Origin: Gemmata sp.
GTDB taxonomy: Bacteria; Planctomycetota; Planctomycetia; Gemmatales; Gemmataceae
Direction of reading: 5' to 3'
Assembly: GCA_025055115.1 (NCBI GenBank)
Contig: JANWYJ010000008.1
Span: 44,230-108,229, forward strand
Length of the DNA: 64,000 bases
The position numbers and the translations under genes are program-made. This document shows positions 4,716 through 39,885 of this stretch, one piece after another. A model generated the notes under the pieces. It searched no databases. It was not told where the DNA came from and saw nothing but the letters and a program-made list of their open reading frames with translations. Every line of letters begins with the position of its first letter. Positions within the stretch are counted from its first letter, which is position 1.

Positions 4716-4831
4716 GAGCCTGGGCGGGAGTGCATTGGGGCCACTGCGGCTCGAAGGGGCGTCTTGAGCTTCAGTGGCAGCAATCCCTGGAGCCTGGGCG
4801 GGAGTGCATTGGGGCGACGACGGCTCGGCAA
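4716..4831. repeat. Two copies of a ~41-bp direct repeat, period 74 bp
   Basis: gagcctgggcgggagtgcattgggg... occurs at 4716 and 4790, about 36/41 identical. It lies in the spacer between the AAA+ gene and the groEL stop. Confidence 0.9.
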
Positions 4832-4993
4832 ATCTGTGCCCAATCGTCGGAGGGCAGGTTGCGTCACACCACGGCGGCTGTTCAGACGTAGTTCTGTTTC
4901 GGTTCGTCCTGGATTTTCTCAGGTTGGAAAAAGCTGCAGGGGGTGTTGGCCCCCTGCGTGTGTCCGGCTGCGGCGGTGTGGGCCGCGCGATGG

Positions 4994-6631
4994 TTAGTAG
5001 AGGTCGTCGTAGTTACCGCCGGCGGCGCCTTTCTTTTCTTCCTTCTTTTGCTCCTCGGCGATGAGCGCGTCGGAGGTCAGAAGTAGCGTTGCAACGCTGG
5101 CAGCGTTTTGCAGGGCACTGCGGACGACTTTGGTGGGGTCGATGATTCCGCGTTTCATCAGGTCGGTGTATTCGCCACTGCGGGCATCGTAGCCGAAGTT
5201 CTTGTCGTTGTTGGCTAGCACTTCGTTGATGACCACGTTGCCATCTTCGCCAGCGTTTTCGACGATTTGCTTGATCGGTGCCCGGCAGGCGCGGACGATG
5301 ATGTTGTAACCGATCTGTTCATCGTCGGTGAGGTCGCTGCTGGGTTTGAGGCCTTGGCTGGCCCGCAGCAGGGCGATACCACCACCGGGCAGAATGCCTT
5401 CTTGGTGCGCGGCTTTGGTGGCGTGCATCGCGTCCTCGACGCGCATCTTCTTTTCCTTCACTTCGCTTTCGGTAGCCCCGCCGACATTGATCTTGGCCAC
5501 CCCGCCGGAGAGCTTGGCGATCCGTTCGCTGAGTTTTTCTTTGTCGTAATCGCTGGTGCTCTTTTCCAATTCCTTTTGGATACTGGCAATGCGGGCTTTG
5601 ATGGCGTCTTTCTTACCGCCACCTTCGATGATGGTGGTGTTTTCCTTATCGACCTTGATCTTCTTGGCTTTGCCGAGTTGATCGAGGGTGACGGTTTCGA
5701 GTTTCAGGCCCAAATCTTCGAAGATCGCTTCGCCGCCGGTCAGAATGGCGATGTCTTGCAGCATGGCTTTGCGGCGGTCGCCGTAGCCGGGGGCCTTCAC
5801 CGCGCACACCTTCACCTGGTAGTTCGACTTGATGACGTTGACGACCAACAGGGCCAGGGCTTCGCCATCCACTTCTTCGGCAATGATCAGAAGCGGCTTG
5901 CCTTCGCGAACGACTTTCTCCAGAAGCGGCAGAATGTCGCGGGCTGCGCTGATCTTCTTCTCGTAGACGAGGACGTAGGCATCTTCCAGGATGCATTCCA
6001 TCGTCTCCGGGTTATTGATGAAATATGGCGACAGATAGCCCCGGTCGAACTGCATCCCTTCGACGAATTCGTAGGTGGTTTCGAGGCTTTTGCCTTCTTC
6101 CACCGTGATGACGCCATCTTTGCCGACTTTGTCCATCGCTTCGGCCAGCTTGCGGCCAATGTCAGCATCGCCGTTGGCGGCGACGGTGGCGACGTGTTCC
6201 AAATCTTGCTTGCCTTTGACCGCAATGCTCATTTCCTTGAGCTTGGCGACGATATCTTCAACGGCTTTGTCCATGCCGCGTTTCATCAGCATGGGGTTGG
6301 TACCCGCGACCACCGCTTTCAGCCCTTCGTTGAAGATGGCTTCGGCCAACACAGTGGCGGTGGTGGTGCCGTCGCCCGCGACATCGGAGGTCTTGGAGGC
6401 GACTTCCTTGACCATGGCCGCGCCCATGTTCTCATAATGGTCGGGCAGTTGAATTTCCTTGGCCACGGTAACACCGTCTTTGGTCACTGTCGGGCTGCCG
6501 AACGATTTTTGGATGATGACGTTACGGCCTTTCGGTCCCAGTGTGACCTTGACGGCCTTGGCCAGTTTGCTGATCCCGCGTTTGATGGCATCGCGGGCTT
6601 CTTGGTCGAACGCAATTTGCTTGGCGCTCAT
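4994..6631 (-). CDS. groEL: Chaperonin GroEL (copy 1)
   Basis: 545 aa with classic GroEL sequence ([12 protein letters not shown]..., [23 protein letters not shown]). The tail ...[13 protein letters not shown] lacks the GGM repeat. Confidence 0.97.
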
Positions 6632-6684
6632 TCCTGATCCTCGTCTGGAGTGATTAGCGGATGGTGTTTTGGGGGATGCGATGA

Positions 6685-6978
6685 TTATTCAATGACGCAC
6701 AATACGTCGCCTTCGTGCATCAGCAGCAGTTCGTCGCCGGTGGCACGGTCTTTGAATTCATCGCCGGCCCATGAGGTGAACAGCACCTTGTCGCCCACCT
6801 TCAGTTGTAAGGGGGTTCGGGTGCCGTCCTTTTGCAGCTTGCCAGGCCCGACGGCCAGGACGGTGCCGCGCTGGGGTTTGTTTTTGGCCGTATCGGGCAG
6901 CAGAATGCCTCCCGCGGTTTTGGCTTCCGCGGCTTCGCGACGAACCACAATCCGGTCGCCGATTGGTTTCAGACCCAT
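6685..6978 (-). CDS. groES: Co-chaperonin GroES (copy 1)
   Basis: [14 protein letters not shown]...[10 protein letters not shown]...GPG is typical GroES. GGAG lies 8 nt upstream of the ATG at 6978. The longer ORF start at 7029 falls inside a promoter motif. Confidence 0.95.
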
Positions 6979-7028
6979 GACAACTCCGTTGGTGCCAAGG
7001 GAACTTCGATACTCGCGGTCTGTTGCCA

Positions 7029-7044
7029 TGCAAGTCGCGTGCCC
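7029..7044 (-). promoter_or_regulatory. Sigma-54 type -24/-12 promoter candidate for groES-groEL copy 1
   Basis: The minus strand reads GGGCACGcgacTTGCA, i.e. GGCACG-N4-TTGCA against the consensus TGGCACG-N4-TTGCW. It sits about 50 nt upstream of the GroES ATG. Confidence 0.6.
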
Positions 7045-7239
7045 GGCTGCGAAAAGTGAATTAAGTTATGACTGAATAAGGACTTGTGGAAATATATCCT
7101 CGGAGCTGCCGAGCGTAATTCTGTCAGGATGACCCGATGGCCGACGGCCACGACTGCCGCTTTGGCAGGGTTCCTTCTTCGTCCGCTGGGTGGCCTCGTT
7201 GGGCCACATCGCGAAATTGTTGAATGCCAACGTAGTGGC

Positions 7240-8010: not shown

Positions 8011-8154
8011 GACGTTGGTTCCGCTACACCAAGGATTGCCCCCCTAGCCCTGAGGATGCAGTGGGCAACACTCACCGCGGCTGGAGAATGTCGGGCGCGG
8101 ATGCCGTGCCCGTGCGTGATGCACTCGCGGTGCTTCGGTGATGCATATGTGATC

Positions 8155-9333
8155 TCACATCCGTTCGACAATGAGGGCCACCGCGTTGCCACCGCCCAAG
8201 CACAGCGCCGCCAAACCGTAGCGCTTGTTGTGCCGCTTCAGGGCATAAACGAGCGTGACCAACACCCGCGCACCGCTGGCGCCGATGGGGTGGCCGAGGG
8301 CCACCGCGCCGCCGTGGACGTTCACTTGCGCTTCGTCGAGTTGCAGTTCCTGGCAGCAGGCAAGCATTTGCGCGGCGAACGCTTCATTCAGTTCGAACAG
8401 GTCGATGTCGGTAAGAGCGAGTTGGGCCTTTGCGCACGCTGCGCGGATGGCTGGTACGGGAGCCAGGAAGATGTCTTTGGGATGGACTCCGCTCATGGCA
8501 TAGGCCACGATGCGAGCCAGCGGTTGCGCTCCGTGCTGCGCCACGAAACGGCCGGAGGCGACGACGACCGCTGCAGCTCCGTCGGAAAGTTGCGAGGCGT
8601 TGCCGGCGGTCACAGTCCCCTCCGGGCGGAACGCCGGACGCAGCCGGGCCAAGGAATCGGTCGTGGTCTCCGGGCGGATGCCTTCGTCACGTTCCACGGG
8701 TGGCGTTGGCTTTTTCCCGGGTGGGAAGGTGACGGGGACCACTTCGTCCTGGAAGGCACCGTCGGTCCACGCCGCTGCGGCCCGCTGGTGGCTTTGCGCG
8801 GCGAAGCGGTCTTGTTCCGCACGGCTAATGCCGCACTTGGCCGCGATGTAGTCCGCGGAATCGCCCATCGCGCAGTTTTCAAAGGGGCACCACAGCCCGT
8901 CATGAAGGAGAGCATCGACGGTGGTTTGGTTGCCGTATTTGTAGCCGTGGCGCACACCCGGCAGTAAAAACGGAGCACGGCTCATGCTCTCCATGCCCCC
9001 CGCGACGACCACCTGGGCATCGCCTGCGCGAATGCTTTGGGCCGCAAGCATCACGGCTTTCAACCCCGAGCCGCAGACCATGTTGGTGGTGTGAGCCGGG
9101 ATGGTCTCAGGCAGCCCCGCGAAAAGGGCGGCTTGCCGCGCCGGAGCCTGCCCCAAACCGGCTTGCACCACGTTGCCCATAATGACATCGTCAACCTGGT
9201 CGGGCTTCACACCAGCACGCCGGACCGCTTCTGCAATGGCGATCGCCCCCAAACGCGGGGCTGGCAATTCCGACAGGCCACCCAGAAATTTGCCAATCGG
9301 CGTGCGCACGGCCGACAGGAGAAACGCTTCCAT
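8155..9333 (-). CDS. Acetyl-CoA C-acetyltransferase (thiolase II)
   Basis: 392 aa with the active-site region NMVCGSGLKAV and C-terminal HGGAVALGHPIGASGAR and CLGGGNAVA. Confidence 0.93.
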   Translation of the reverse strand: MEAFLLSAVRTPIGKFLGGLSELPAPRLGAIAIAEAVRRAGVKPDQVDDVIMGNVVQAGLGQAPARQAALFAGLPETIPAHTTNMVCGSGLKAVMLAAQSIRAGDAQVVVAGGMESMSRAPFLLPGVRHGYKYGNQTTVDALLHDGLWCPFENCAMGDSADYIAAKCGISRAEQDRFAAQSHQRAAAAWTDGAFQDEVVPVTFPPGKKPTPPVERDEGIRPETTTDSLARLRPAFRPEGTVTAGNASQLSDGAAAVVVASGRFVAQHGAQPLARIVAYAMSGVHPKDIFLAPVPAIRAACAKAQLALTDIDLFELNEAFAAQMLACCQELQLDEAQVNVHGGAVALGHPIGASGARVLVTLVYALKRHNKRYGLAALCLGGGNAVALIVERM

Positions 9334-9648: not shown

Positions 9649-9765
9649 GGAAACCGTGTTTCCACTCCAATCCCCTTGGGCTGTGCCAATCGTAGATCGT
9701 ATGTGGGCTGTGCCAATCGTAGATCGTATGTGGAAGGATAAGTATCGGGCGGAAGCCGTGTTTCC
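9649..9765. repeat. 27-bp tandem duplication (9678-9704, 9705-9731) flanked by two copies of a short palindrome
   Basis: GGAAACcgtGTTTCC lies at 9649-9663 and GGAAGCcgtGTTTCC at 9751-9765. They bracket gggctgtgccaatcgtagatcgtatgt x2. Confidence 0.9.
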
Positions 9766-9838: not shown

Positions 9839-9941
9839 CCTCGCGTTCCGAGTCTTTTGCATTCTGCGACTCACGGATCGAGGTGGGTGGGGGCTGGATT
9901 TCCGGTATCCCTCGCGTTCAGAGTCTTTTGCATTCTGCGAC
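9839..9941. repeat. 32-bp direct repeat, period 71 bp, spanning the hemH stop codon
   Basis: cctcgcgttcAgagtcttttgcattctgcgac (9910-9941) contains the tca stop complement at 9918-9920. The copy at 9839-9870 has tcc at that position. Confidence 0.9.
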
Positions 9942-10988: not shown

Positions 10989-11036
10989 GATGCTTCGGTG
11001 CGGGGTGGGCCGGCCCGTTGGCGACAGAGGAAGGAA

Positions 11037-14049: not shown

Positions 14050-14210
14050 AGTGCAGTTGCCGCATTTCCTGAACAGTTGGGTCGGTTCGAGCTGCGCTGC
14101 CATAGTACAGCTCATCCGCCGAGTGCAGTTGCCGCATTTCCCGAAGAGCTAGGTCGGTTCGAGGATCAGTTGGAGGGTATGTCGACAAATGTCGAGTTGC
14201 AGTTGACGAG
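14050..14210. repeat. 42-bp direct repeat x2 plus a degenerate third copy, period 72-73 bp
   Basis: agtgcagttgccgcatttcc[t/c]gaa...ggtcggttcgag occurs at 14050 and 14122 (38/42 identical). A decayed copy, agttgcagttgacgag, starts at 14195. Confidence 0.85.
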
Positions 14211-14229
14211 TCCGTGGGCAGGAGGGGAA

Positions 14230-15057
14230 TTAACGCCGCGGACGCCGCTTCGGTTGATGAAAAATGGGTAAAAGTTCGTCGATGTCGCGGGGAGTCGGTT
14301 CGGGTTTATCTTCATGCCACGGATCGCGGGTGGGAGCGGCCGACGGTGTGCCCGGCGGGGGGCGGTCGGACAACAGCCAATCGACAAATTGGCCACAATT
14401 CAGATACCAGCATTCGCCGCGGCGGGCGGCTTCACGCACCCGGGCATCGTTGGAGACCACCGTCAGCGATTGGGGGTTGGCGGCCGTCGCGATCCACGTT
14501 TCGATCGCATCGTCTGCGGTTTGGGCGAAGGCGAATTGCACCTGCAAGCCCCGGTGGCGGGTTTGGAGCGTGGGTTCGGGGGCCGATTGGGCGTCGAAGA
14601 CCATGTGGACTTCGGCCCGGTTCTTGAGGTGGTCGGCGATCCAATCGAGCAGGCGCAGCCGAGCGCGAACGAAAGCCGCTGCGGGCATGTCACGCGTGGC
14701 TAACCCCATGGCGTGTAACAAGTTGTAGCCATCGACGAGGAAAGACACAGCAGCACCGACTTTCTCGAGTTCGGTTGCGTCGTCGATCCGTCGAACGAGG
14801 CAAACGACAGGTGGCGGGGGTTCGTTATCCTCCGATTGTCGTGATTGTATCACGCCGCGGCTCACCAGCGGAATGACAGTTGTGAGAAAATCGCCCGGGG
14901 GAGCACCCGCGTCATGCCCTCGCTGTGGGCCGGCTCTGGAGGGTGAAAAGCCGATCGGAACTAGCCTCCGAAAATGCCGCAGGCTGCGTAGCGCGCCACG
15001 CAGCCTTCTGGCGAATCTATCGATAATCGGTCGGAGGATCGACCGTCGGAGCAGCAA
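14230..15057 (-). CDS. NYN/YacP-like RNase domain protein
   Basis: The conserved part starts at VSFLVDGYNLLHAMG...VVSNDARVREAARRGE (GTG at 14748). The Arg-rich 100 aa upstream may not be translated, so the start is uncertain. Confidence 0.7.
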   Translation of the reverse strand: MLLRRSILRPIIDRFARRLRGALRSLRHFRRLVPIGFSPSRAGPQRGHDAGAPPGDFLTTVIPLVSRGVIQSRQSEDNEPPPPVVCLVRRIDDATELEKVGAAVSFLVDGYNLLHAMGLATRDMPAAAFVRARLRLLDWIADHLKNRAEVHMVFDAQSAPEPTLQTRHRGLQVQFAFAQTADDAIETWIATAANPQSLTVVSNDARVREAARRGECWYLNCGQFVDWLLSDRPPPGTPSAAPTRDPWHEDKPEPTPRDIDELLPIFHQPKRRPRR

Positions 15058-15826: not shown

Positions 15827-16405
15827 CTATTGTTCACTGGCCACGACAACCGACGCCGGACGGAGCACGCGATCGTGTAACAGGAACCCGTGTTGCAATA
15901 CCTGCACCACTTGCCCGGGCTGGAAGGTTGTGCCGGCTTGCTGCATGACCGCCTGATGCAAGTTGGGGTCGAAGGTCGTGCCGGGTTCGACGGGGATGCG
16001 GTGAATGCCGTGGCGCCGGAACGCATCGAGAAACTGGCTGGCGGTGGCGGCGACTCCGGTGGCCAAAGGGCCGTTGTCGCCGGCGCGTTGGGCGGCTTCC
16101 AAGGCCCGGTCGAGGTTATCAAGGGCCGTCAGCAGATCGCGGACCAACGGTTCAATAGCAAATTTGCGTTCGATCTCCATATCGCGGAGAAGGCGTTTGC
16201 GGGCATTGTCGAAGTCGGCCAGCATCAATTTGTAGTTATTCAATTCTTGTTCACGCGCGGCTAATGCGGCTCGGAGTGTGTCCAGCTCATTGGCAGGTGG
16301 GTGTTCCACCGGCACGGGTTCTTCCACCGGCGGGGCGGTTTCAGGCGCTGTTCCAGGCGCTGCGGCGGGGGGCGTTTCTGGCGTTGCAGCTTGCTCATCG
16401 GGCAT
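15827..16405 (-). CDS. grpE: Nucleotide exchange factor GrpE
   Basis: 192 aa with a GrpE-like coiled-coil N-terminus and a C-terminal beta domain (FDPNLHQAV...GFLLHDRVLRPASV). Confidence 0.9.
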   Translation of the reverse strand: MPDEQAATPETPPAAAPGTAPETAPPVEEPVPVEHPPANELDTLRAALAAREQELNNYKLMLADFDNARKRLLRDMEIERKFAIEPLVRDLLTALDNLDRALEAAQRAGDNGPLATGVAATASQFLDAFRRHGIHRIPVEPGTTFDPNLHQAVMQQAGTTFQPGQVVQVLQHGFLLHDRVLRPASVVVASEQ

Positions 16406-17724: not shown

Positions 17725-19410
17725 TTAGGCGATCGCACCGACAACGGGTTTCTTCTTGTCGTCGTCATCCAACCGGGTGACCAGTACCTCGGTGGTGAGC
17801 ATCAGCCCAGCGATGCTGGCTGCGTTCTGCAGGGCGTTGCGGGTGACACGCAGCGGGTCGATAATCCCGGCTTTGAACATGTCTTCGTATTCGCCGGTGT
17901 TGGCGTTGTAGCCGATGTTGGGGTTTTTCTCGCCGCGGGCGATCACTTCGGCGGCCACCACAGCTCCATCGGCCCCACCGTTTTCGGCGATCGTGCGAAT
18001 GGGTTTGGCCAGTGCCCGGGCCACGATTTCGGCGCCGACACGTTCATCGTGTTTGAGTTTTTCGGCCAGGGCTTCGACCGTGGGGATGCACCGCAGTAGC
18101 GCCACCCCACCGCCGGGAACGATGCCTTCGGCCACGGCCGCACGCGTAGCGTGTAGGGCATCCTCCACGCGGCCTTTGGTTTGCTTCATTTCCGCCTCGG
18201 TGGACGCACCGACTTTGATGATCGCCACACCGCCGCCGAGTTTGGCGAGCCGTTCGGAGAATTTCTCCTTGTCGTACTCGCTTTCGGTTTGATTCATCTG
18301 CGTGCGGATCGTATCCATGCGGGCTTTGATGGCCGCTTGGCGTTCCTTGTCGGGTTCGACGATGATCGTGGTGCTTTCCTTGTCGACGATGACTTTGTTG
18401 GCCGTGCCGAGCAGTTTGAAGACTTTCGGTTCCGGCCGAGCGCCACGTTGTTGCTCTTTGGCGCTGGGTTCTTCCATGCTGTCGAGGGCGATGCCGCGGT
18501 CTTCGCTGATGAAAGTCCCGCCGGTTAGCACGGCGATGTCTTCCATCATGGCTTTGCGGCGGTCCCCGAAGCCCGGCGATTTGACGGCGCAGACTTCGAG
18601 CAGGCCGCGCAGCCGGTTGACCACGAGGACGGCCAGGGCTTCGCTTTCCACATCATCGGCCACGATCAGAAGCGGCTTGCCGGCGCGGGCGACAGCGTCC
18701 AGCAGCGGCAGCATTTCGCGCACGTTCGACAGTTTCTTTTCGTACAGCAGCACCAGAACGTTCTCTTGCTCCCACTTCAGATCGGGCGTGTTGACGACGA
18801 AGTACGGCGAGATGTAGCCTTTGTCGAACTGCATCCCCTCGACGAATTCCTGCACGGTTTCGGAGGTTTTGCCTTCTTCGACCGTGATGACGCCATCGCG
18901 GCCAACCTTTTCGAAGGCTTCGGCCATCATTTCGCCAATTTTGGGGTCGTTATTGGCCGAAATGGTGGCCACTTGCTTCATTTCATCCTTCTTGGAGACG
19001 GGTTTTTTCAACGTCTCTTCGAGGTATTTGACCGCGGCGGCCACGGCTTTGTCGATGCCGCGCTTGACGGCCATAGGGTTGGCCCCGGCGGTGATATTGC
19101 GCAAGCCCTCTTGGTAGATGGCCAGTGCCAGAACGGTGGCGGTGGTAGTGCCGTCACCAGCAACATCGGAGGTTTTTTGGGCGACGGCGTTGACGAGTTT
19201 GGCCCCCATATTCTCGAAGGGGTCGGCCAGTTCGATTTCCTTGGAGACGGTGACTCCGTCTTTGGTGACGGTGGGTCCGCCGAAGGATTTCTCGATGATG
19301 ACGTTGCGTCCGGTGGGGCCGAGGGTCGAGCCGACGGCGCGGGCGAGTTTTTCCGCACCGGCTAAAAGTTTCTTCCGGGCTTCGTCGGTATAGAGTAATT
19401 GTTTGGCCAT
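17725..19410 (-). CDS. groEL: Chaperonin GroEL (copy 2)
   Basis: 561 aa of GroEL sequence throughout. It has an unusual acidic/basic tail, ...[16 protein letters not shown], with no GGM repeat. Confidence 0.97.
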
Positions 19411-19537: not shown

Positions 19538-19849
19538 TTATTTGACGATTTTGCCGAGGATTTCACTTTCACGCAGAATCTTGTATTCCTTGCCGTTGAC
19601 TTGCACATCCGAGCCGCTGTACTTGCCGAACAGCACGGTGTCGCCCACAGCGACCGCGAGGGTATGGCGTGTGCCCTTGTCGGTGAGCTTACCGGGACCG
19701 ACCGCGATGACTTTGCCTTGTTGGGGCTTTTGCTTGGCGGTATCGGGCAGGAGGATGCCGCCACTGGTCTTTTCTTCGGCTTCCAGTGGTTCCACCACCA
19801 CGCGATCATCGAGCGGTTTGAGGGTCAGTGGCTTATCGCTTTTGGCCAT
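19538..19849 (-). CDS. groES: Co-chaperonin GroES (copy 2)
   Basis: 103 aa. [44 protein letters not shown]. Confidence 0.95.
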
Positions 19850-19878
19850 GATGGTTTACTCCGGTGGTTGGTTGGGGA

Positions 19879-19899
19879 GCCGAGGTTGGGGGCCTCGGC
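19879..19899 (-). other. 7-bp stem hairpin in the groEL3-groES2 spacer
   Basis: GCCGAGG-ttggggg-CCTCGGC lies 30-50 nt upstream of the GroES2 ATG. Possible processing site, attenuator or RNA structure. Confidence 0.3.
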
Positions 19900-19997
19900 G
19901 GAACAATCGCTGGTAACGTTGGATCCAGTTGAGAGTGTGTGGTTTGTCGGGACCGTGGGGTATTGCCCAAGTTGGTGAACTTTGGGGTTGTGGGGGT

Positions 19998-21896
<1,899 letters not shown>

Positions 21897-24921: not shown

Positions 24922-25017
24922 AACCGGTTGCACCCCCCCTCGGAGACGACATTGCCGAAGCCCTAGCTTCCGACGGTGCTACCGCCGCGATAGAACCGGG
25001 GGCAACCCTCCTAGGGG
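24906..25017. repeat. Direct repeat, period 72 bp, spanning the stop codon of the 21961-24921 CDS
   Basis: gctaccAccgcgatagaaccgg at 24906 includes the tag stop at 24919-24921. The copy gctaccGccgcgatagaaccgg lies at 24978. Weaker similarity continues for about 16 more nt. Confidence 0.9.
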
Positions 25018-25123: not shown

Positions 25124-25177
25124 GTCGAGATGGCGACGATGGGGGCAACCGTCGAGACGGCGACGATGGGGGCAACC
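25124..25177. repeat. 27-bp tandem duplication
   Basis: gtcgaga[t/c]ggcgacgatgggggcaacc x2, 26/27 identical. Confidence 0.9.
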
Positions 25178-25358
25178 GTCGATCACTCCCCGGATGCGAC
25201 TCCGTCGAGCACGATGGGTTGGAGGAACTCCAGGGTAACACGCCTCCACTTCAGCCTTAGTGGAATGGGGCCGTGTGCGGCCGTCAATCAGTTCCCTGAT
25301 CACGAAGTGTTAGATAACCACCTCAGCCTCGGTAGAATGAGGCCGTGGCCGGGGCGAT

Positions 25359-26578: not shown

Positions 26579-26766
26579 GGTGTGCTGTTTGTGCCGGGGG
26601 GCTGGTGTCGGTCAAAGCAATCAGGCCACCACCAAGAACTGGTCGTCTCAGGTGTGGTGTAGTGTTTGTGCCCCGTCACACCACCACCAACCGGTCGTCG
26701 CTGGTGTAGTGTTTGTGTCCCGTCAGGGGTGGTGTTTGTGTCCCGTCAGGTGTGGTGTTTGGGCGC
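26577..26766. repeat. GT-rich repeat array starting at the protoglobin stop codon
   Basis: 4-5 degenerate copies of ggtgt(g)gtgtttgtg[c/t]cc(c)gtca, with two longer units at 26624-26677 and 26678-26724. It is flanked by gccggggg(g)ctgg motifs. Confidence 0.8.
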
Positions 26767-26858
26767 CGGGGGCTGGCTGGTCGGCCCCCGGCGCCGGTTG
26801 CGGGAACTCGGGTTGTTGCTACGGAATGAAGCTGAGCCGACGTTCTGCGGCCCGACTT

Positions 26859-26979
26859 AGCGTTTGATGCTCTTGAGCGTTTGATGCTCTTCAGTAGGCT
26901 TTCAACTAGTCCACACCGTCCCAGGGTGTACCCGGCACCGTGTGGCTAGCGTTTGATGCTCTTCAGCAGGCTTTCGACT
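26859..26979. repeat. Three copies of the 3' end of the 26946-27611 CDS (periods 17 and 72 bp)
   Basis: agcgtttgatgctctt occurs at 26859, 26876 and 26948. The 26876 copy matches 30/32 nt of the true gene end, which includes the stop complement cta at 26946-26948. Confidence 0.9.
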
Positions 26980-27611
26980 GTGGCCCGATAGTCTTCCGGG
27001 ACTTCTTTCGGGTCGGTGGTTTCGATCTTTTGTTTGTCGTCTTGGATGATGATCTTAGGCGGATCGTTGCCCGCCAAAGCACCAACGATGGTGTAACTCA
27101 CATTGTTACGGCGGGCGCGGATGGTGAAGGTGTCGTTAACGATCGTGATTGACTGGGTGGTGACGCCAACAGCGTTTTCGAAAGCGATACCGTTGATGAC
27201 GACACGAGCACCCCCTCGGCCGCCCCGCATCGGCGGCAGCGGCTCGAACTTCTTCTCTGGCTGCGTGGGGCGTTCGAATTCCCGGCCGGTTAGCGCCTTT
27301 TCGATCCGCCCCAGTTCTTTGGAGATCGCGTCCACATCTTCGCCCTTTTTATGGGCGGCTTCCACCGCTTGCCGCAAGGCGGTCAGTTCGGGGGGCGCTT
27401 GACCGGCTTTGAACGTCGGTTGGGCCAAGGCTTTTTCCAGGGCCACGAGGGCATCGCTGATCAGGCCGACGTTGACGCCCTTCTTCTCGGCTTGTTCCAC
27501 GGCATACTTGAGGTCGTCCAGATTCACGGCCGCGGGTTGGGGGTCGGCCGCAGTCACGGTGGTGGCCGTCAGAACGACAACCACCGTCGCAAAGAGTCGT
27601 GCGCGGAGCAT
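26946..27611 (-). CDS. Secreted hypothetical protein with a helical repeat module shared with the upstream PDZ protein
   Basis: Signal peptide MLRARLFATVVVVLTATTVTA. The module VNLDDLKYAVEQAEKKGVNV...PPELTALRQAVEAAHKKGEDVDAISKEL is paralogous to residues in the 27677-28810 product. Confidence 0.6.
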   Translation of the reverse strand: MLRARLFATVVVVLTATTVTAADPQPAAVNLDDLKYAVEQAEKKGVNVGLISDALVALEKALAQPTFKAGQAPPELTALRQAVEAAHKKGEDVDAISKELGRIEKALTGREFERPTQPEKKFEPLPPMRGGRGGARVVINGIAFENAVGVTTQSITIVNDTFTIRARRNNVSYTIVGALAGNDPPKIIIQDDKQKIETTDPKEVPEDYRATVESLLKSIKR

Positions 27612-27676
27612 GGCAGGCCCTCCCGTGATGAAGGAATCATCCTCGATCGCGATGGCTTGATTTCGTGGTGGAGGAA

Positions 27677-28810
27677 TCAATCCCGATCGAGTTGCTTGAG
27701 TTCCCGTTCGAGTCGCTTTTGCAATTCGTCAAGTTCGCGTTGCAGTTGGGGTAAGGCGTTGGGGAAACCGGGCAAGTCGTTGGGTACCAGCACGCCAGCT
27801 TCGGGCAATTCCACGTCTTTGATTTCGACCTTCTTGCCCTTGCGCAACACGACGACCGTGAATTTTTCACCGGCTTTCGCTTCGTTGATCCGGCGGGCGA
27901 ATTCATCCGGATCGTTGCTCACCGGCTTGCCGGCGAATTCCAGGATGATGTCGTTGGCTTTCAGTCCCACTTTCTCCGCTACGGTGTTGGGAATCACCGA
28001 GGAAACGACAATCCCGGTATTGGGTTCCAAACCCAGTTGTTCAGCGGCCACCGCCGGGACACGTTCCATGCGGATGCCGAAGCGAACCCGTTCTGCCGGC
28101 CGAGCCACATCAGGGCCGATCGGATCGGGGAAATTGGGAGGCATTGGCAACAGCCGCGGCAAACGACCTGCACCAGCCGCTTTGAGCATCAATTCTTGCG
28201 ATTCGGCCAGCAGTTTCCGCGCTTCTGGGTCGCGGGGATTGCGCATCAGCAGTTCGGTGGCTTTCCGCCGCAATTCCATCGCTCTGTTGAAGCCGGGAAC
28301 GTCGATACCACCAATGATGCCGAAATCGCCCATACCCGGATCGGGCAGAATCGGTAGCGGCAGATCGGGCACGAAGGGCCGCGGACGACGGTTGTTCGGG
28401 TTGGGTTGTGGCTCGGGTTGCGGTTCGGGCTTGGGTTTGGCGAGCGATCGGCCGGCGATTGCCATTTCGATCGCTAACAATTCCTTAGTAACTCGATCAA
28501 CATTCTCGCCTTTACGGGCCGCAGCATCGACCGCATCGCGCAGGGCTTGTAATTCCGGCGGTACGGTGCCCGGTTGAACATTCGGCAGCACTTTCTCGAA
28601 GGCTTCGAGAGCTTTGGTGATCTCATCAACATTCGCCCCACGTTGGGAATCGGCCTCCAGCGCTTCGCGCAGCGCGGTCAGATCGACCGGTTTGTTGGCC
28701 GTCGCTTTGGGCGCGGGCTGGGGTTGTTCGGCGGCCAGCGTCCATCCGACCGCGGCCAGCACACCCATGACCAAGCTCGAAATCCCGACTATTAAGCCTT
28801 TCCGAACCAT
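27677..28810 (-). CDS. Secreted or anchored PDZ domain protein
   Basis: N-terminal TM/signal segment, the same helical module as the downstream gene, a Pro-rich linker and a C-terminal PDZ (GIVVSSVIPNTVAEKVGLKANDIILEFAGKPV). GAGGAGG precedes the ATGs at 28819 and 28810. Confidence 0.75.
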   Translation of the reverse strand: MVRKGLIVGISSLVMGVLAAVGWTLAAEQPQPAPKATANKPVDLTALREALEADSQRGANVDEITKALEAFEKVLPNVQPGTVPPELQALRDAVDAAARKGENVDRVTKELLAIEMAIAGRSLAKPKPEPQPEPQPNPNNRRPRPFVPDLPLPILPDPGMGDFGIIGGIDVPGFNRAMELRRKATELLMRNPRDPEARKLLAESQELMLKAAGAGRLPRLLPMPPNFPDPIGPDVARPAERVRFGIRMERVPAVAAEQLGLEPNTGIVVSSVIPNTVAEKVGLKANDIILEFAGKPVSNDPDEFARRINEAKAGEKFTVVVLRKGKKVEIKDVELPEAGVLVPNDLPGFPNALPQLQRELDELQKRLERELKQLDRD

Positions 28811-29233: not shown

Positions 29234-29293
29234 CTAGTAGCTCTGGCGGCGCATCGCGGTGTACTAGTAGCTCTGGCGGTGCATCGCGGTGTA
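29234..29293. repeat. 30-bp tandem duplication spanning the stop codon of the 29264-29824 CDS
   Basis: ctagtagctctggcgg[c/t]gcatcgcggtgta x2, 29/30 identical. The downstream copy keeps an in-frame stop. Confidence 0.95.
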
Positions 29294-29824: not shown

Positions 29825-29901
29825 AGTGCCCTGATTGGTAAGAGTTCTGCGTAGGTGATGGGGCGACGTTGTGTGGTTTCCCTCAGGTTGTGTGGTTTCC
29901 C

Positions 29902-30414
29902 TCAGTATGTGATCAGGCTGAAGACATCCCGGCCCGCGAGCTGTTGCGCGCCGTGGAGAAAGGATAATTCGATGAGGAACGCACAGCCCACCACTACGCC
30001 CCCCGATTCTTCGACCAGTTTGCACGCGGCGGCCATAGTCCCCCCGGTGGCTAGTACGTCATCGACCAACAGCACGCGTAATCCCGGCGTGATGGCGTTG
30101 GCGTGGACGTGCAATTCGGCACTGCCGTATTCGAGGTCGTATTTGTAGCTACGGGTGGCGCCCGGCAGCTTGCCCGGCTTGCGCAGGGGAATGAGAGGTT
30201 TTTTCATCTGCAAGGCCATGGGGGCGGCGAAGAGAAATCCGCGTGCTTCCGCAGCCGCAATCGCCTCGACCGGCGCGGCCTGATAATGCCGGCACAGGGC
30301 ATCGACCGCGTAGGCGTAGGCCTCCGGGTGGGCCATCAGTGGCATGATGTCTTTGAAGAGTACGCCGGGTTTGGGAAAATCCGGCACATCGCGAATGTAC
30401 GCCTTGAGGTCCAT
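29902..30414 (-). CDS. apt: Adenine phosphoribosyltransferase
   Basis: 170 aa with IRDVPDFPKPGVLFKDI and the PRPP-binding VLLVDDVLATGGT. Confidence 0.93.
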   Translation of the reverse strand: MDLKAYIRDVPDFPKPGVLFKDIMPLMAHPEAYAYAVDALCRHYQAAPVEAIAAAEARGFLFAAPMALQMKKPLIPLRKPGKLPGATRSYKYDLEYGSAELHVHANAITPGLRVLLVDDVLATGGTMAAACKLVEESGGVVVGCAFLIELSFLHGAQQLAGRDVFSLITY

Positions 30415-30502: not shown

Positions 30503-30982
30503 ATGAACCTGCACATTCGCCGGGCAACGGTGGCCGATTTGCCAGTCTTGGTGGCTTTCAATCAAGCCATTGCTTGGGAAACGGAACACAAACAGCTCGA
30601 TGAACAGATTGTGACCACCGGGGTCCGAGCGGTTTTCGACAACCCGGCTCGGGGATTCTATACCGTAGCGGAACGCGACGGTGCGGTGGTTGGCCAAATT
30701 ATGGTCACCTACGAATGGAGCGATTGGCGCAACGGCTGGTTTTGGTGGATTCAAAGTGTCTATGTCCGGGAGGATGCCCGGCGCAGCGGTGTATTTCGTG
30801 CCCTCTATGAAGCCATCCGCGACCAGGCGGCCCGCGATCCGACAGTGATCGGTCTGCGCCTGTACTTCGACATCGCCAATACCCGCGCTCAGGCTACCTA
30901 CCGGGCTATGGGCATGCGCGATACCACCTATGGCATCATGGAAGTCTATCCCCTCCCGGGGCGCGAATCGCACATTCGTTGA
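30503..30982 (+). CDS. GNAT family N-acetyltransferase
   Basis: 159 aa with a GNAT core, including the acetyl-CoA motif VYVREDARRSGVFRALYEAI. Confidence 0.85.
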   Translation: MNLHIRRATVADLPVLVAFNQAIAWETEHKQLDEQIVTTGVRAVFDNPARGFYTVAERDGAVVGQIMVTYEWSDWRNGWFWWIQSVYVREDARRSGVFRALYEAIRDQAARDPTVIGLRLYFDIANTRAQATYRAMGMRDTTYGIMEVYPLPGRESHIR

Positions 30983-31061
30983 CGGCAGAAGCCGCTAACC
31001 GACGAAACTTTCGCTGCTATCGCGGCCGCGAATCGCACATTCGTTGACGGCAGGAGCCGCT
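30963..31061. repeat. 34-bp direct repeat (period 65) spanning the GNAT stop codon
   Basis: gcgaatcgcacattcgttgacggcag[a/g]agccgct occurs at 30963 and 31028, 33/34 identical. The tga stop at 30980-30982 lies inside the first copy. Confidence 0.95.
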
Positions 31062-31233
31062 TGTGCCGACCAGCGTCGGGTTGTGCCGACCAGCGTCGGG
31101 TTGTGCCGACCAGCGTCGGGTTGTGCCGACCAGCGTCGGGCGGAGTTGGTCGCTACCGCCCAAGCTTGGTTTGGATAGCTCTCCATAAGCTTGTTGGTGC
31201 CGACCAGCGTCGGGCGGAGTTGGTCGCTACCGC
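31061..31233. repeat. Perfect 20-bp tandem repeat x4 with a hairpin core, plus a dispersed fifth copy 74 bp downstream
   Basis: ttgtgccgaccagcgtcggg is repeated x4 (31061-31140), each with CCGAC-cagc-GTCGG. A 19-bp tail cggagttggtcgctaccgc follows. One unit plus the tail recurs at 31197-31233. Confidence 0.95.
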
Positions 31234-31777: not shown

Positions 31778-32320
31778 GTGTGGACATCGAACAGTACGAC
31801 GGTGATTGGTGTTTTCTCCATTCGCGAGGAGATGGAACAAGCCATCCGCGAACTGCGTGCGGCAGGATTCTCGGAAGATAGTATCGGGATGATCAGTCGC
31901 GACCCGGAAGGCCGGCTGGTCAGTGAAGGTGGTGGTCAAACATTGGTCAGCGAAGGAGCTGCGGCCGGCGCTGTGGTGGGAGCCAGTGCTGGGGCATTGG
32001 TAGGATGGGGGATGGTCAGCGGTACGATTCCGGTGATCGGTCCGGTGTTGGCCCTTGGTACACTGGGTACCATTCTGGTGAACGCGGCCGGCGGGGCTAC
32101 GATTCTGGGCATTGTGGGAGCTTTGGTCGGTCTGGGTATTCCCGAAGATGAAGCCAAGTTCTACGAAGCGGAAGTCCAAGGCGGCCGCTTTTTGGTCACG
32201 GTGGATGCCAGAGATCGCCAAACTGAGGCCTGGACAATCCTCAATCGGTCGGGGGGCTACAATCATGCGACCCAGACTCACGATCGCAGCAACCGACCGA
32301 GTACATCAGTGGCCAACTGA
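31778..32320 (+). CDS. General-stress-like protein with a central glycine-zipper hydrophobic segment
   Basis: 180 aa. VIGVFSIREEMEQAIRELRAAGFSEDSIGMISRD and EDEAKFYEAEVQGGRFLVTVDA flank a Gly/Ala/Val-rich stretch. It resembles YflT/DUF1269-type stress proteins. Confidence 0.6.
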   Translation: MWTSNSTTVIGVFSIREEMEQAIRELRAAGFSEDSIGMISRDPEGRLVSEGGGQTLVSEGAAAGAVVGASAGALVGWGMVSGTIPVIGPVLALGTLGTILVNAAGGATILGIVGALVGLGIPEDEAKFYEAEVQGGRFLVTVDARDRQTEAWTILNRSGGYNHATQTHDRSNRPSTSVAN

Positions 32321-32433
32321 CCAGAAACTTTTACATCAGTGGCCAACTGACCAGAAACTTTGCAACTGTGACCGACCAAGCTTTCGACATCGTCCGGGGT
32401 GATGCACCACAGTGGCCAACTGCCCGGAAACTT
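32302..32433. repeat. Perfect 30-bp tandem duplication spanning a stop codon, plus a degenerate third copy 73 bp on
   Basis: tacatcagtggccaactgaccagaaacttt occurs at 32302-32331 and 32332-32361, 30/30 identical. The tga at 32318-32320 is the CDS stop. A third copy, cagtggccaactgcccggaaactt, starts at 32410. Confidence 0.95.
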
Positions 32434-32679
32434 GGCAACGGTTGCCGTTAGCCCCACCCCAGACGGACCACCTGCGACGTTCAACCACCATCGCTTGTTG
32501 CGAGATACGATTGCGTTCGGGGTGGATTTCGTGGTGTTCGTTTCGCCTGCCCTGTCCTGTATGGGCTGTTGAGATTCCGGAGCACAGGTGCTTTCACGGC
32601 AGCACCGAGATACCAACCACGATAACGTTTCAACCACCCGAGCTAATGGCGATGGTTCCTAGTGGGTGTGACAATCCAC

Positions 32680-35444: not shown

Positions 35445-35579
35445 GCCCCCCGCGCAGCTTGATTCTGCCCACTTGCTGGGTGAACGGGCAGCCCTCCAGC
35501 CCCTCCCTGTCGCTACGGAGGACTGTCGCTGCTGAAGACTGACGACCCACCCGGGGCCTCAGCGGGGGCTGAGAGCGCT

Positions 35580-36932: not shown

Positions 36933-37031
36933 GCCTGGTGTCCTGAGTCGTTTGTCGTTGGTGGGGCCGACAGGTGACGCGGGCTGTGGTCGCCGCGGGA
37001 GCACGGCAACTCGCAAGCCGCCGACCAACGA

Positions 37032-37550
37032 CTAGGCCGGATCGACCCGGAACAAGACTTCCCCGTATTCCACCGGTTCACCGCTTTTCTTGCAAATTTC
37101 CACAATCGTGCCGGTGCAATCCGCGTAAACCTCGTTGTAGAGTTTCATCGCTTCAATCGTACAAACAACGGTTTTCGGAGTGACTTTACTACCAAGGGTT
37201 ACGTAGTCGGGTTTTTTCGGGTCGGGTTTGGCGTAGAACGTCCCGACCATAGGCGATTTGATCTCGATGAGATTTTTGGTGGTCGTGGGTGGTGGGGGTG
37301 GCGGTGCCACGGGGGAATTGCCGTTGGCCGTGGCCGGTGGGCTGGCGGTAACCGGCGCCGCCGCCGGGGCCGTGAGTGGCAGCGGCGAGGGGAACGCCGG
37401 CGCGGCGGGGTAAAGCGCCGGGGCGACCGCGGTTCCTTTGCGCAGACGAATACGTTGGTCGCCTTCCTTGAGGTCGATCTCGGCCAGTTCGTGCGCGGTC
37501 ATCAGTTTCAGCAAATATTCGACCGTGCGCACGTCGAACGGTCGGGGCAT
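37032..37550 (-). CDS. accB: Acetyl-CoA carboxylase biotin carboxyl carrier protein
   Basis: Ala/Pro-rich linker and a C-terminal biotinyl domain with EAMKL (CTIEAMKLYNEV). Start at ATG 37550. Confidence 0.9.
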   Translation of the reverse strand: MPRPFDVRTVEYLLKLMTAHELAEIDLKEGDQRIRLRKGTAVAPALYPAAPAFPSPLPLTAPAAAPVTASPPATANGNSPVAPPPPPPTTTKNLIEIKSPMVGTFYAKPDPKKPDYVTLGSKVTPKTVVCTIEAMKLYNEVYADCTGTIVEICKKSGEPVEYGEVLFRVDPA

Positions 37551-37739
37551 ATCCCGTTTGTCGTCGGCCACCACGCCACTCCCAAAACGAAACGCCCGGC
37601 CCAACCGGGACTGCGAGAAAGCTAATGTACAGGGGAGCGGGGCGATTGGCAGCGGGTGGTGGCCGTGGTGCGAGGGTTTCTGGCGGCAGCCGTCCACTCC
37701 GCCCCATCCGCCCCACCGCGAGGATTTCAACCAGCGCTG

Positions 37740-38885
37740 TCAAACGACCGCGAAGGTGCTGATTTCCCGGGGCAGCGTACTGAGCAGCCGGTAGCCATCG
37801 TGCGTGACCAAAACATCATCTTCAATGCGCACACCGCCCCAACCCGGAATATAGATGGCCGGCTCAATCGTCACGACCATACCCGATTCGAGAACGTCTT
37901 CCGAGTTGGCACGAATCTTCGGCGCTTCGTGGACCTCCAGGCCGATGCCATGCCCCAGGCCGTGGGTGAAATAATCGGCCAAATTGCCTTCCGGGGCGCG
38001 ATGGATTTTCGCGGTCGCAATCGCCTTGCGGGCGGCGGCGTCCACGTCTTTGGCCTTCACGCCGGGGCGAATCATGGCCAACGCGGCATTCTGCGCGGTG
38101 AGAACCACTTGATAAATCTCTTCAAAATCGTAACCAACACGTTCCATCTTGTTGCGGCGGCTGGGAGCCGTGCCAAAGGGGCTACGCAGTGTGCGGGTCA
38201 AATCCGACTTGTACAGCAGGTCGGCACCCCAATCGACCAACAGTTTGCTTCCTTCCCCCAACGGCCGGTTGGTGGGCGGGGCGTGCGGCAAAGCCCCGCG
38301 CTCGCCGACGGCCACAATCGGAGGGAAAGACGAACCACGGGCCCCGGCGCGACGGATGTAATTCTCCAGGGCATCGACCATTTCTTTTTCTGTGTCCGTC
38401 TCACGCAGCGTCGCAACGAACATGCGGAATGCCCGCTCGGCGACCCGCACCGAATCTTCAATCTTCTGCACTTCACTGGGGTCTTTGATAACACGCTGCG
38501 CTTCAATCACCCCGTTGAGCGGAACAAAGTTGATTTTCGGAGCCAGCGCCTTCAACTGCTCCAGCTCGCCCAAGGTGATGCGATTCCCCTCCACACCCAC
38601 CGACTTGACTCCGGCCTTGGTCAACACTTCCGCCGCCGCTTCCAACGTGGTGCGGTTGTGCGGGCGGATATGAGCATCCAGATCACTGCATTCGTCCTTG
38701 ATCTGTTCCTCAAAGCGGCTGTCACTGATGAGCAGACCGTTTTTCACCGTGGTGAAGTACGTGTCCTCACCCGTAAAACCCGTCAGGTAAGTGACATTGA
38801 CCGCAGTGGTGACCAGGAAGGCCTCCACTCCGTGGGTTTTTAGGGCCCGAGTCAACGCGGTGCGACGTTCGAGGATGTAGTTCAT
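37740..38885 (-). CDS. pepP: Xaa-Pro aminopeptidase (M24B family)
   Basis: 381 aa with a creatinase-like N-domain and the M24 metal-ligand region HGLGHGIGLEVHE...EPAIYIPGWGGVRIED. Confidence 0.88.
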   Translation of the reverse strand: MNYILERRTALTRALKTHGVEAFLVTTAVNVTYLTGFTGEDTYFTTVKNGLLISDSRFEEQIKDECSDLDAHIRPHNRTTLEAAAEVLTKAGVKSVGVEGNRITLGELEQLKALAPKINFVPLNGVIEAQRVIKDPSEVQKIEDSVRVAERAFRMFVATLRETDTEKEMVDALENYIRRAGARGSSFPPIVAVGERGALPHAPPTNRPLGEGSKLLVDWGADLLYKSDLTRTLRSPFGTAPSRRNKMERVGYDFEEIYQVVLTAQNAALAMIRPGVKAKDVDAAARKAIATAKIHRAPEGNLADYFTHGLGHGIGLEVHEAPKIRANSEDVLESGMVVTIEPAIYIPGWGGVRIEDDVLVTHDGYRLLSTLPREISTFAVV

Positions 38886-38951
38886 ACGAGCGTTAGCGTA
38901 ATTAAAGTGAGGTGACGTTTGGTTAAGTAATCAACTGAGCAACGCCTCTCC

Positions 38952-38980
38952 ATAATACGGGCGTTTCACACAAATCAGAA
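38952..38980 (-). promoter_or_regulatory. Sigma-70-like promoter candidate for pepP-accB-accC
   Basis: The minus strand reads TTCTGA-N17-TATTAT followed by GGAGA. It lies inside a 233-bp AT-rich spacer. Confidence 0.3.
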
Positions 38981-39118
38981 GTGTTACTATCTTGTGTGGC
39001 GTGAGAATTCAACAATTAACCGAAATATTTCGCCAGGTTTTTGTTGTGATTTTCAATAACAGCTGAATCAGGTGGAACGAGGATACCAAGTTGGATTCCT
39101 GTTACATACACCGTCAGG

Positions 39119-39709
39119 ATGACGACCGACCACGGCAAGCGATACACGACAAATATCATGAACGTTATAACCAAAACTGATCCGGCGCAACAGGACCGCT
39201 TGTGGCTCGGCTATCATCCGCGAGCGGCCATTCCTTGGATGGTGACGGTCGGAGCGGTTTCTTTGCTGATTTGGACGGGAAAATGGTATCTCGACGAGCT
39301 TTCCGATCTGGCCGAAAAGATCGGGGCACTGGCCTTGTTCGCGTTGGCGTGGGGGGTGTGGCCACTCTTAGGGGCGATCATTCTGTATCGTACAGTTGCC
39401 TACACGTATCGGCTCACCGATCGCGCGCTGTACTATGATTTTGGTTTTTGGTATGCTCCACAGCCTCCGGTCTGGCTGCAGGACATCCTCGCGGTTCGCT
39501 GGGGGGGCGGATGGCTCAGTTGCGCGTTGGGAGTCGGCTGGATCGAGGTGCGGACAGCCGATCGTGTGGTTCGTTGGCCAGGAGTGCGCCATCCCCAGCG
39601 AGTGGCGGAAGCTATTCGCGCGGCTGTCGCCGCGGTCCAACGTGCCGACACCCGAATACCGCAAGTCGTTGCCACCCCAACCAATCGCGACGATCTGTTC
39701 AGAATGTGA
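39119..39709 (+). CDS. Membrane protein with a bacterial PH (YdbS/YdbT-like) domain
   Basis: Two TM segments followed by YRLTDRALYYDFG...IEVRTADRVVRWPGVRHPQRVAEAIR. An alternative start lies at ATG 39158. Confidence 0.65.
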   Translation: MTTDHGKRYTTNIMNVITKTDPAQQDRLWLGYHPRAAIPWMVTVGAVSLLIWTGKWYLDELSDLAEKIGALALFALAWGVWPLLGAIILYRTVAYTYRLTDRALYYDFGFWYAPQPPVWLQDILAVRWGGGWLSCALGVGWIEVRTADRVVRWPGVRHPQRVAEAIRAAVAAVQRADTRIPQVVATPTNRDDLFRM

Positions 39710-39885
39710 ACTCGGCCGTGGTGCGGAAGCGGTGCTCCCTGATTCTCCGCGAACTGTTCAGAAGGTGAACGGGGCAGTGGTGGGGGAGCGGTGCTCCGTG
39801 ACGCTCTGCGCGCCGAGAAGTCGCCGGCGTCAAAGACGGCTTGTGCCGGTGGTGGGGGAGCGGTGCTCCGTCACTCTCTGCGCGG
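39695..39885. repeat. 59-bp tandem repeat starting in the last 15 nt of the PH-domain CDS, plus a partial third copy 72 bp on
   Basis: ctgttcagaa[t/g]gtgaac...gtggtg[c/g]gg[a/g]agcggtgctcc... occurs at 39695 and 39754. The segment gtggtgggggagcggtgctccgt recurs at 39777 and 39849. Confidence 0.9.

Follow-up and report, generated by a model that had tools for sequence, protein, structure and literature searches.

In a 64-kb stretch of the core chromosome of a Gemmataceae planctomycete (Gemmata sp., contig JANWYJ010000008.1; the whole stretch is called the window below, G+C 60%), we describe a recurring class of local direct repeats in which two copies of a target sequence flank a unique spacer, and in which the copy-to-copy distance is fixed at 70-74 bp. 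Units are written R1-S-R2, where R is the direct repeat, S the spacer, and the period the distance between the starts of R1 and R2. Each event is best described as an insertion of about 72 bp, made up of filler and a long target duplication. The product resembles a CRISPR array, and a CRISPR-made origin is put forward tentatively. In our best reading, possible though short of probable, a ruler would govern the insertion of short DNA fragments, much as when Cas1-Cas2 acquires spacers ectopically.

The original prediction listed eight pairs of repeats with nearly the same spacing, and all eight are direct repeats at the offsets given (74, 71, 72, 72, 72, 74, 73, and 72), with 86-100% identity over 30-42 nt in a blastn self-comparison. 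Two starting points shift while the offsets stand: the pair placed at 31141 truly begins at 31123 (37/37 identical), and the one placed at 9842 begins at 9839. The further copy claimed in the 14050-14214 unit does exist, starting at 14195, but is weak, with a match of no more than about 17-20 nt. Scans by exact seeds, by blastn, and with mismatches tolerated agree on the repeat set; five or six pairs come on top of the eight, among them those at 25245 (period 72), 2486 (73), 59530 (93), and 59500 (163). With the threshold set at 22 of 28 matching positions, 39 local repeats emerge in the window, 11 with periods of 70-74 bp, and none in 20 dinucleotide-preserving shuffles. A period of 70-74 bp is found in 12 of the 19 repeat-spacer-repeat events (binomial p = 1.7e-14 against a uniform null of 31-200), which bears out the recurrence near 72 bp; the same anatomy occurs in a few events at 42, 47, 59, 65, and 79-80 bp. 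The units and the events entangled with them are as follows.

2486-2589: decayed unit, period 73; copies at about 2486-2516 and at 2559-2589 (24/31 identical).
4716-4827: unit, period 74, between convergent genes; R1 4716-4753, S 4754-4789, R2 4790-4827 (35/38).
9839-9941: unit, period 71; R1 9839-9870, S 9871-9909, R2 9910-9941 (31/32), R2 covering the stop codon of the minus-strand ferrochelatase gene and the 7 codons before it.
14050-14214: three-copy unit, periods 72 and about 73; R1 14050-14091, S 14092-14121, R2 14122-14163 (38/42).
24906-25012: unit, period 72; R1 24906-24940, containing the stop codon of the DUF7133/cytochrome c gene, S 24941-24977, R2 24978-25012 (30/35).
25245-25352: decayed unit, period 72; copies from 25245 and 25317 (28/36).
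26857-26979: unit, period 72; R1 26876-26907, S 26908-26947 (a strong hairpin), R2 26948-26979, which is the 3' end of the minus-strand gene 26946-27680; a partial copy (17-19 nt) lies at 26857-26875.
30962-31061: repeat-spacer-repeat, period 65, with 35 nt in R (34/35) and 30 nt in S; R1 has homology to the related locus L001.
31061-31140: perfect tandem array of four 20-nt copies, its last 18 nt forming the start of the repeat in the next unit.
31123-31233: unit, period 74; R1 31123-31159, S 31160-31196 (hairpin, 46% GC), R2 31197-31233 (37/37).
32302-32447: perfect 30-nt tandem duplication (32302-32361) with a unit of period 73; R1 from 32337, R2 from 32410 (27/30 identical, or 38 nt if mismatches are allowed).
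39691-39884: nested events; a 7-nt spacer lies between the copies of a 52-nt repeat (39691-39742 and 39750-39801, period 59) that includes the stop codon of gene 39119-39709, followed by a unit of period 72 with R1 39777-39812, S 39813-39848, R2 39849-39884 (34/36).
59500-59707: nested events at the 3' end of lpd; outer duplication of about 40 nt, copy 1 59500-59539, copy 2 59663-59707, the latter with a 5-nt indel; the present period of 163 is 70 after subtraction of the nested 93-nt event.
59530-59655: inner lpd unit; R 59530-59562 and 59623-59655 (33/33); the period of 93 is 73 plus a 20-nt tandem duplication at 59564-59601.
63082-63203: repeat-spacer-repeat, period 79-80, with about 42 nt in R (one indel) and about 37 nt in S.

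The repeats are 32-42 nt long (32, 32, 33, 35, 36, 36, 37, 38, 38, 40, 42, and 42 nt) at 78-100% identity, and the spacers 30-40 nt. Even where the repeats are perfect, at 31123 (37/37), at 59530 (33/33), and in the related locus L102 (36/36), S is unrelated to the sequence 3' of R2. Repeat and spacer lengths trade off against each other (r = -0.62, p = 0.019), and R+S has a standard deviation of 2.95, compared with 3.2 and 3.5 for its parts, which is tighter than random pairing (permutation p = 0.011). Because the two lengths are negatively correlated and their sum is tighter than either, the constrained quantity is the period, that is, the DNA added per event; the earlier proposal of a length ruler, as opposed to random slippage, is upheld by the same sum. 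Beyond what selection tolerates, no target specificity was detected. Junction microhomology of at least 1 nt is present in 7 of 17 events, near chance and with none consistent. No shared boundary motif is apparent by eye, and the repeats show no more structure than intergenic 36-mers taken as controls; on these last two grounds a shared motif or palindromic target was ruled out. By inspection only, a sigma-54 promoter or TGCA motif in the repeats has unsuitable spacing.

Which parts of a unit are ancestral was assessed against outgroup loci from a set of 168 related loci (L numbers). The closest GTDB genome, an uncultured Gemmata metagenome-assembled genome (MAG; L001), shares 22 kb of synteny with the window at about 82% nucleotide identity (95% amino-acid identity in the M20 peptidase), and a second outgroup lineage (L161-L166) is about 85% identical across the right-hand 16 kb; JGI metagenomes contain no closer relative and none above 87% amino-acid identity. 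At lpd, the C-terminus ...THMAKPRKR* is common to the window and both outgroup lineages, so that copy 1 (including CGC TAG) is continuous with the gene, the outgroup Lpd ending in PRKR* too. The sequence after copy 2 aligns with the outgroup gene end and immediate 3' flank (AAGCGAGAGCGTTCCTCC-CGTCGTTGG vs AAGCGGTAGCGTTCATCCGTGTCGCTGG; 23/28 nt match with L162, shuffle p = 0.004), and the sequence after copy 1 has no comparable alignment to that region. Since copy 1 runs on from the gene and copy 2 into the ancestral flank, the alignment indicates that a target of about 40 nt was duplicated and that new DNA separates two copies whose outer junctions are ancestral. The junction between copy 1 and its spacer was later struck by a second event (R 33 nt, S 40 nt), and the 20-nt tandem duplication followed.

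The same topology, new DNA between ancestral outer junctions, is suggested at 26857-26979, where the gene-proximal copy continues the gene and the distal partial copy retains the TAA stop and the G of L001, at the same distance from a conserved block as in the outgroup. At 24906, R1 encodes the C-terminus QVELPPR*, which fits the family consensus QV[PE]LP.[KR] and marks this copy as the ancestral one. At the other loci, divergence of the intergenic DNA in the outgroups prevents alignment. Three other assignments were considered and set aside. A copy-only model, in which S is ancestral and R2 alone was inserted 72 nt away, was prompted by the CGC TAG after lpd copy 1, which relatives share, and is ruled out by the alignment of the copy 2 flank with the outgroup gene end and 3' flank, the target of about 40 nt including the stop. 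The spacer S4 (24941-24977) as ancestral C-terminal coding sequence is ruled out by the fit of the present LPPR* end to the family consensus. An apparent homologue of an L162 downstream block within the lpd spacer (59540-59621, p = 0.01) is probably spurious, a better-placed homologue lying at 59810-59887.

The window sequence is present in two public hot-spring metagenome runs, here X1 and X2. X1 contains 99% of the words sampled from the window, and its dominant strain differs by few single-nucleotide polymorphisms (SNPs) per 20 kb; X2 is an older, low-coverage run from a different study and year, whose strain has diverged by about 1%. The units at 24906, 32337, and 59530 are crossed without differences by Logan k=31 contigs from X1, and X2 contigs span those at 4716, 30962, and 31123 with strain-specific SNPs. 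Since junction-spanning contigs come from two runs of separate studies and years, the units are not assembly artefacts. The two runs also reveal turnover. The dominant X1 strain lacks exactly one 74-nt unit at 4715/4790, the joint being ambiguous over the 26 nt common to R1 and R2; the unit is present in the X2 strain, and by parsimony the X1 allele is a repeat-mediated deletion, so that units are lost as well as gained. The range of repeat identities, from 100% to about 78%, shows that events accumulated over time.

Several smaller strain differences were recorded alongside. In grpE (16338-16362, a 12-nt unit from 16342) X1 is one 12-nt unit short, X2 has an extra TCTTG after 3190, and the 23-nt array at 26709 differs in copy number between strains. 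At 14070, X1 carries the R2 base in R1. A second, minor X1 variant at 39683-39794 (depth 4.7 vs 11.7) has 7 differences in 112 nt, mostly in the region of the 52-nt repeat, and could be a second strain or the outcome of gene conversion between copies.

Orthologous intergenic regions measure 61, 120, and 126 nt in L001 vs 276, 368, and 281 nt in the window, the units being absent from L001, and the scan applied to the window detects no local repeats in the outgroup loci L161, L162, L166, and L167. Relatives at about 82-86% nucleotide identity thus lack the window units and have intergenic regions 2-4 times shorter; intergenic DNA in this lineage has expanded 2-4 fold through local insertions since the split from its relatives of about 85% identity. 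In a survey of 160 other loci (1.9 Mb, Gemmataceae with Bradyrhizobium controls) the 72-75 bin stands out, and most of its hits look like multi-copy 24-codon repeats, among them the 72-nt repeats of L051, L085, and L091, regular multi-copy arrays that were called coding by eye without a check of open reading frames. Non-coding repeat-spacer-repeat units were found in L102 (two), L025, and L001, at 71-75 bp; the look at other Gemmataceae that the original prediction had called for thus turns up a few cases. Full tandem repeats in relatives show no preference for 72-74. The trait is sporadic in Gemmataceae and strongly amplified in the lineage of the window.

Two of these loci contain related structures. 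In L102, a 275-nt insertion at 3453-3725 resembles a miniature inverted-repeat transposable element (MITE), with inverted arms of about 51 nt forming GC hairpins; it is missing from L030, a close relative, occurs more than once in the locus, in several copies (also at 2321-2446 and 8944-9069), and carries a perfect 36+37+36 repeat-spacer-repeat at its centre. In L016, another Gemmataceae MAG, a perfect full-length 74-nt intergenic tandem of three copies (19787-20010) ends in a long hairpin; it shares the period of the window units, but here the unit is repeated in its entirety.

About 10% of the window is non-coding, and the events are restricted to this DNA and to gene ends; all units whose period is not a multiple of 3 lie between genes or are buffered at a gene end. 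With periods of 70, 71, 73, and 74 occurring, and with this placement, the units are not 24-residue coding repeats. A copy covers the stop codon in six units (ferrochelatase at 9910, DUF7133 at 24906, lpd at 59500, the genes ending at 26946 and 39709, and, as a possible member, the NYN gene at 14230); such overlaps are tolerated because an in-frame copy leaves the gene end intact. Repeats inside window genes keep the reading frame, with a length of 12 nt in grpE and of 21 nt in the E2 linker. Events cluster, at 2-5 per region in several intergenic regions, and later ones overlap earlier ones at 30950-31233, 39691-39884, 59500-59707, and 26626-26979. The same regions hold short tandems that relatives lack at the orthologous places; the 15-nt and 17-nt duplications, for instance, are missing in L162. 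Both units and short tandems may persist because selection against insertions is relaxed in this lineage.

2784-63000: short tandems, for example at 9677-9733, 25124-25182, 26709-26761, 29234-29293, and 29868-29905, and further at 31061-31140 (20 nt in four copies), 32302-32361, 50096-50129, and 61488-61517.
61383-61460: motif AATAGGRCSTTGCAAA in three copies at 17- and 25-nt spacing, single in L162; the upstream region is otherwise conserved, and with spacers of 1-9 nt the motif forms a repeat-spacer-repeat expansion on a small scale.

The spacers look like ordinary DNA, with 61% G+C and normal complexity. They have no match elsewhere in the window or among the 168 related loci, align with one another over at most 9 matched bases, and are no patchwork of their flanks (6-mer coverage p = 0.13 direct and 0.43 inverted, against shuffles). 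On the six stretches examined, no second copy was found in the X1 and X2 contigs; the same comparison did return an unrelated 40-nt partial match from elsewhere, and matches of this size are thus detectable. Taken together, the spacers have a slightly stronger tendency to fold than shuffled sequences (mean z = -0.88, p about 0.04). Two spacers 1.2 kb apart, at 31160-31167 and 32375-32383, both start with CCAAGCTT, which has a HindIII-type palindrome inside; the common start could be coincidence or a shared source. Separately, 26762-26795 is a perfect GC hairpin with a 12-bp stem (GGCGCCGGGGGC...GCCCCCGGCGCC), to which an X2 contig from another genomic place matches over a 40-nt stretch only, and the hairpin may be a dispersed element of the repetitive extragenic palindromic (REP) type.

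The reading that we tentatively prefer is integration, which was not among the rulers suggested in the original prediction. A short unrelated fragment S of 30-40 bp, perhaps foreign, would be joined at two nicks staggered by 32-42 bp, and the filling of both single-stranded gaps would duplicate the target R on either side of S. The resulting R-S-R would add about 36 + 36 = 72 bp per unit, as when Cas1-Cas2 adds a spacer, at ordinary unrelated sites instead of arrays, so that ectopic or off-target insertion would seed one-spacer proto-arrays. The enzyme would be Cas1-Cas2-like or another ruler-bearing integrase, new events would frequently land in or beside older units, and later loss would follow from recombination between the two repeat copies. 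We favour integration since CRISPR adaptation is, to our knowledge, the sole process that creates a unique insert of about 36 nt between target duplicates of about 36 nt. Units of 72 nt are typical of CRISPR systems with 36-37 nt repeats.

Much of the anatomy matches what off-target integration would leave. As in a neo-CRISPR locus, a unique spacer lies between target duplicates at 14 loci, about 30-40 bp between copies of about 36 bp, and the outer junctions are ancestral at lpd and apparently so at 26857-26979; unit size (about 72 bp), the arrival of new events beside earlier ones, and the unrelatedness of target sites agree too. Nivala, Shipman, and Church (2018, as cited in PMC7054753 and bioRxiv 10.1101/148544) demonstrated by experiment that Cas1-Cas2 integrates at non-CRISPR sites, from which new arrays can arise. 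Mutation of the ruler motif in the repeat shifts the second integration site by up to 8 nt (PMC6895254). Since the second site depends on that motif (PMC6895254), a variable duplication length is plausible at sites without it.

Transposons and MITEs share with the units an insertion between target duplicates and polymorphism for presence and absence. Here, in contrast, S differs in every unit (no more than 9 matched bases between spacers aligned all against all), terminal inverted repeats are missing, the duplication of 32-42 bp compares with 2-15 bp in known transposons, and the window has no transposase.

A number of observations weigh against integration by Cas1-Cas2 and call for caution. 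Known Cas1-Cas2 rulers fix repeat length, whereas R here ranges over 32-42 bp and trades off against the length of S, perfect young units having repeats of 33, 36, and 37 nt; we know of no integrase that couples R and S to a constant sum. The window has no cas gene, no CRISPR array, and no preference in target sequence or structure that we could detect, and the 168 related loci contain no CRISPR array either. No protospacer was found: spacers had no match in IMG/VR by seven exact scans with 24-31-mers or, for all spacers, in GenBank phages by blastn. Most real CRISPR spacers are also without a database match. The density, about 14 events per 6 kb or so of non-coding DNA, is orders of magnitude above reported off-target integration, and the arrays rarely exceed one or two spacers. 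Three of 14 spacers are strong hairpins (z < -2.6; 26908-26947, 31160-31196, and the original lpd spacer), which would not be expected of randomly captured fragments. Finally, an integrase leaves unexplained the roughly 14 perfect or near-perfect head-to-tail duplications of 15-30 nt that share intergenic regions with the 72-bp units.

A polymerase or repair process without integrase, though rather unlikely, is the main rival and a serious one. A break or stalled 3' end in non-coding DNA would be resolved by end joining or template switching, such as synthesis-dependent microhomology-mediated end joining (SD-MMEJ) or fork stalling and template switching (FoSTeS), with Ku/LigD, a Pol-theta-like polymerase, or a group-II-intron-like reverse transcriptase as candidate agents; filler would be added, the adjacent 32-42 nt recopied, and synthesis would rejoin. 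The ruler would be a fixed-size intermediate, for example a flap or loop under one SSB tetramer or another DNA-wrapping protein, and a fixed sum with variable R is what is expected of a fixed-length intermediate divided variably. The short tandems, in the same regions and equally lineage-specific, suggest one duplication-prone process, which would unify both classes and explain the sum. Some spacers are snap-back-like, with a hairpin or with pairing to the end of R1 (4734-4752 with 4766-4784; also spacers S5, S6, and S10b), and the tandem in L016 is perfect and full-length. Bacterial reverse transcriptases carry out such end joining with template switching (G2L4 reverse transcriptase; bioRxiv 10.1101/2022.03.14.484287).

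Templated end joining, by SD-MMEJ with Pol theta or by G2L4, likewise leaves a flank copy with filler, and some fillers fold back. There, however, filler is copied from nearby and lengths are broad, whereas here the total is sharply fixed and no template was detected, neither in the flanks, where 6-mer coverage and junction microhomology are near chance and the latter inconsistent, nor in the X1 and X2 contigs examined. Normal spacer complexity, for its part, argues against untemplated synthesis. No repair pathway is known to us with a 72-nt ruler, full tandems in relatives show no preference for 72-74, and a repair process thus provides neither a source for the spacers nor a precedent for the ruler.

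That the units are old tandem duplications of 72 bp, from slippage over one protein-wrapped unit, with second halves since diverged or replaced, is very improbable. The constant period, the limitation of the match to the first 30-42 nt of each unit, and the genuine 74-nt tandem in L016 would fit. Residual similarity in the non-conserved halves, which the original prediction had proposed to look for as a sign of old full-length duplications, is nevertheless missing: only 32-42 of about 72 nt repeat, the remainder is at random identity, and second halves are wholly unrelated even at 31123, 59530, and L102, where the repeats are 100% identical and decay is thereby ruled out. The window has no full-length 72-nt tandem, and at lpd R2 runs straight into the ancestral flank, where no second spacer copy can ever have stood. 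Slippage tandems resemble the units in being local, non-coding, and polymorphic in copy number between strains, and the perfect tandems of 15-30 nt belong with them; the 72-bp class differs in not being head-to-tail, and a single slippage step cannot make it, because the spacer differs from the sequence after the second repeat.

Still less credible are functional paired sites, either binding sites seven helical turns apart or a terminator/antiterminator, kept alike by selection or conversion. A spacing of 72-74 bp is indeed about 7 helical turns, several units directly follow stop codons, some spacers fold like terminators, and the R2 base in R1 of X1 at 14070 could reflect gene conversion. 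Each pair, however, differs in sequence, so that no common factor could read them; the units are missing at orthologous positions in relatives, decay from 100% to about 78% identity as if neutral, include stop codons and coding ends, and match no Rfam family, and a sister strain does without one of them. Chance is next to negligible as an explanation, and so is an artefact of assembly or sequencing: the window is metagenome-derived and k=31 contigs break inside its most repetitive stretches, but the shuffles yield no local repeats and contigs cross the junctions in both runs, with strain-level SNPs.

The surroundings of the units are those of an ordinary chromosome. The window encodes three GroEL paralogues, DnaJ/GrpE, PriA, SMC, ferrochelatase, components of pyruvate/2-oxoacid dehydrogenase including Lpd, and a PVC-type DUF7133-HEAT-cytochrome c protein; tRNA and Rfam scans of it returned no match. 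The groEL paralogues (4994-6631, 17725-19410, and 19998-21731) are 76-89% identical at the nucleotide level in blocks, with dnaJ and grpE between them, and X1 depth spikes above groEL and the biotin carboxylase gene (35.9-37.2 kb) are cross-mapping from other community members. Two neighbouring paralogous genes, 60115-61368 and 61546-63036 (73% nucleotide identity over 264 nt), form a pair that relatives have conserved. The dnaA gene is located some 8 kb downstream of lpd in both outgroup lineages (L162 19796-21217; L167 19964-21385), a position that probably puts the end of the window within about 10 kb of the replication origin. Although the minus strand encodes most of the genes, it is the plus strand that is rich in G, and cumulative GC skew climbs across the window.

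A model of the units has to account for the fixed insert of 70-74 nt, its composition of a 32-42 nt target copy and 30-40 nt of non-local DNA, the trade-off between R and S, the ancestral outer junctions, the nesting, the lineage-specific abundance, and the lack of target specificity. It is somewhat doubtful that short fragments are inserted throughout the non-coding DNA of a natural lineage by an integrase with a ruler, be it Cas1-Cas2 or an enzyme so far undescribed. If true, the genome would by extrapolation hold hundreds to thousands of one-spacer proto-arrays, intergenic regions would be measurably lengthened, with turnover through repeat-mediated deletion, the birth of CRISPR-like arrays would be seen in the wild, and the fixed sum of R and S would reveal an undescribed geometric constraint of the integration complex. 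Should a repair or replication intermediate set the 72 nt instead, this would point to a hitherto undescribed DNA intermediate of fixed size in Planctomycetes. Unrelated repeat-spacer-repeat units with a period of 70-74 bp are in either case a simple signature that can be screened for in any genome. On the integrase reading, this would be the first natural genome with ectopic spacer integration as a major mutational force, and the origin of arrays, the cost of off-target adaptation to the host, and the way in which the complex measures DNA would become testable questions.

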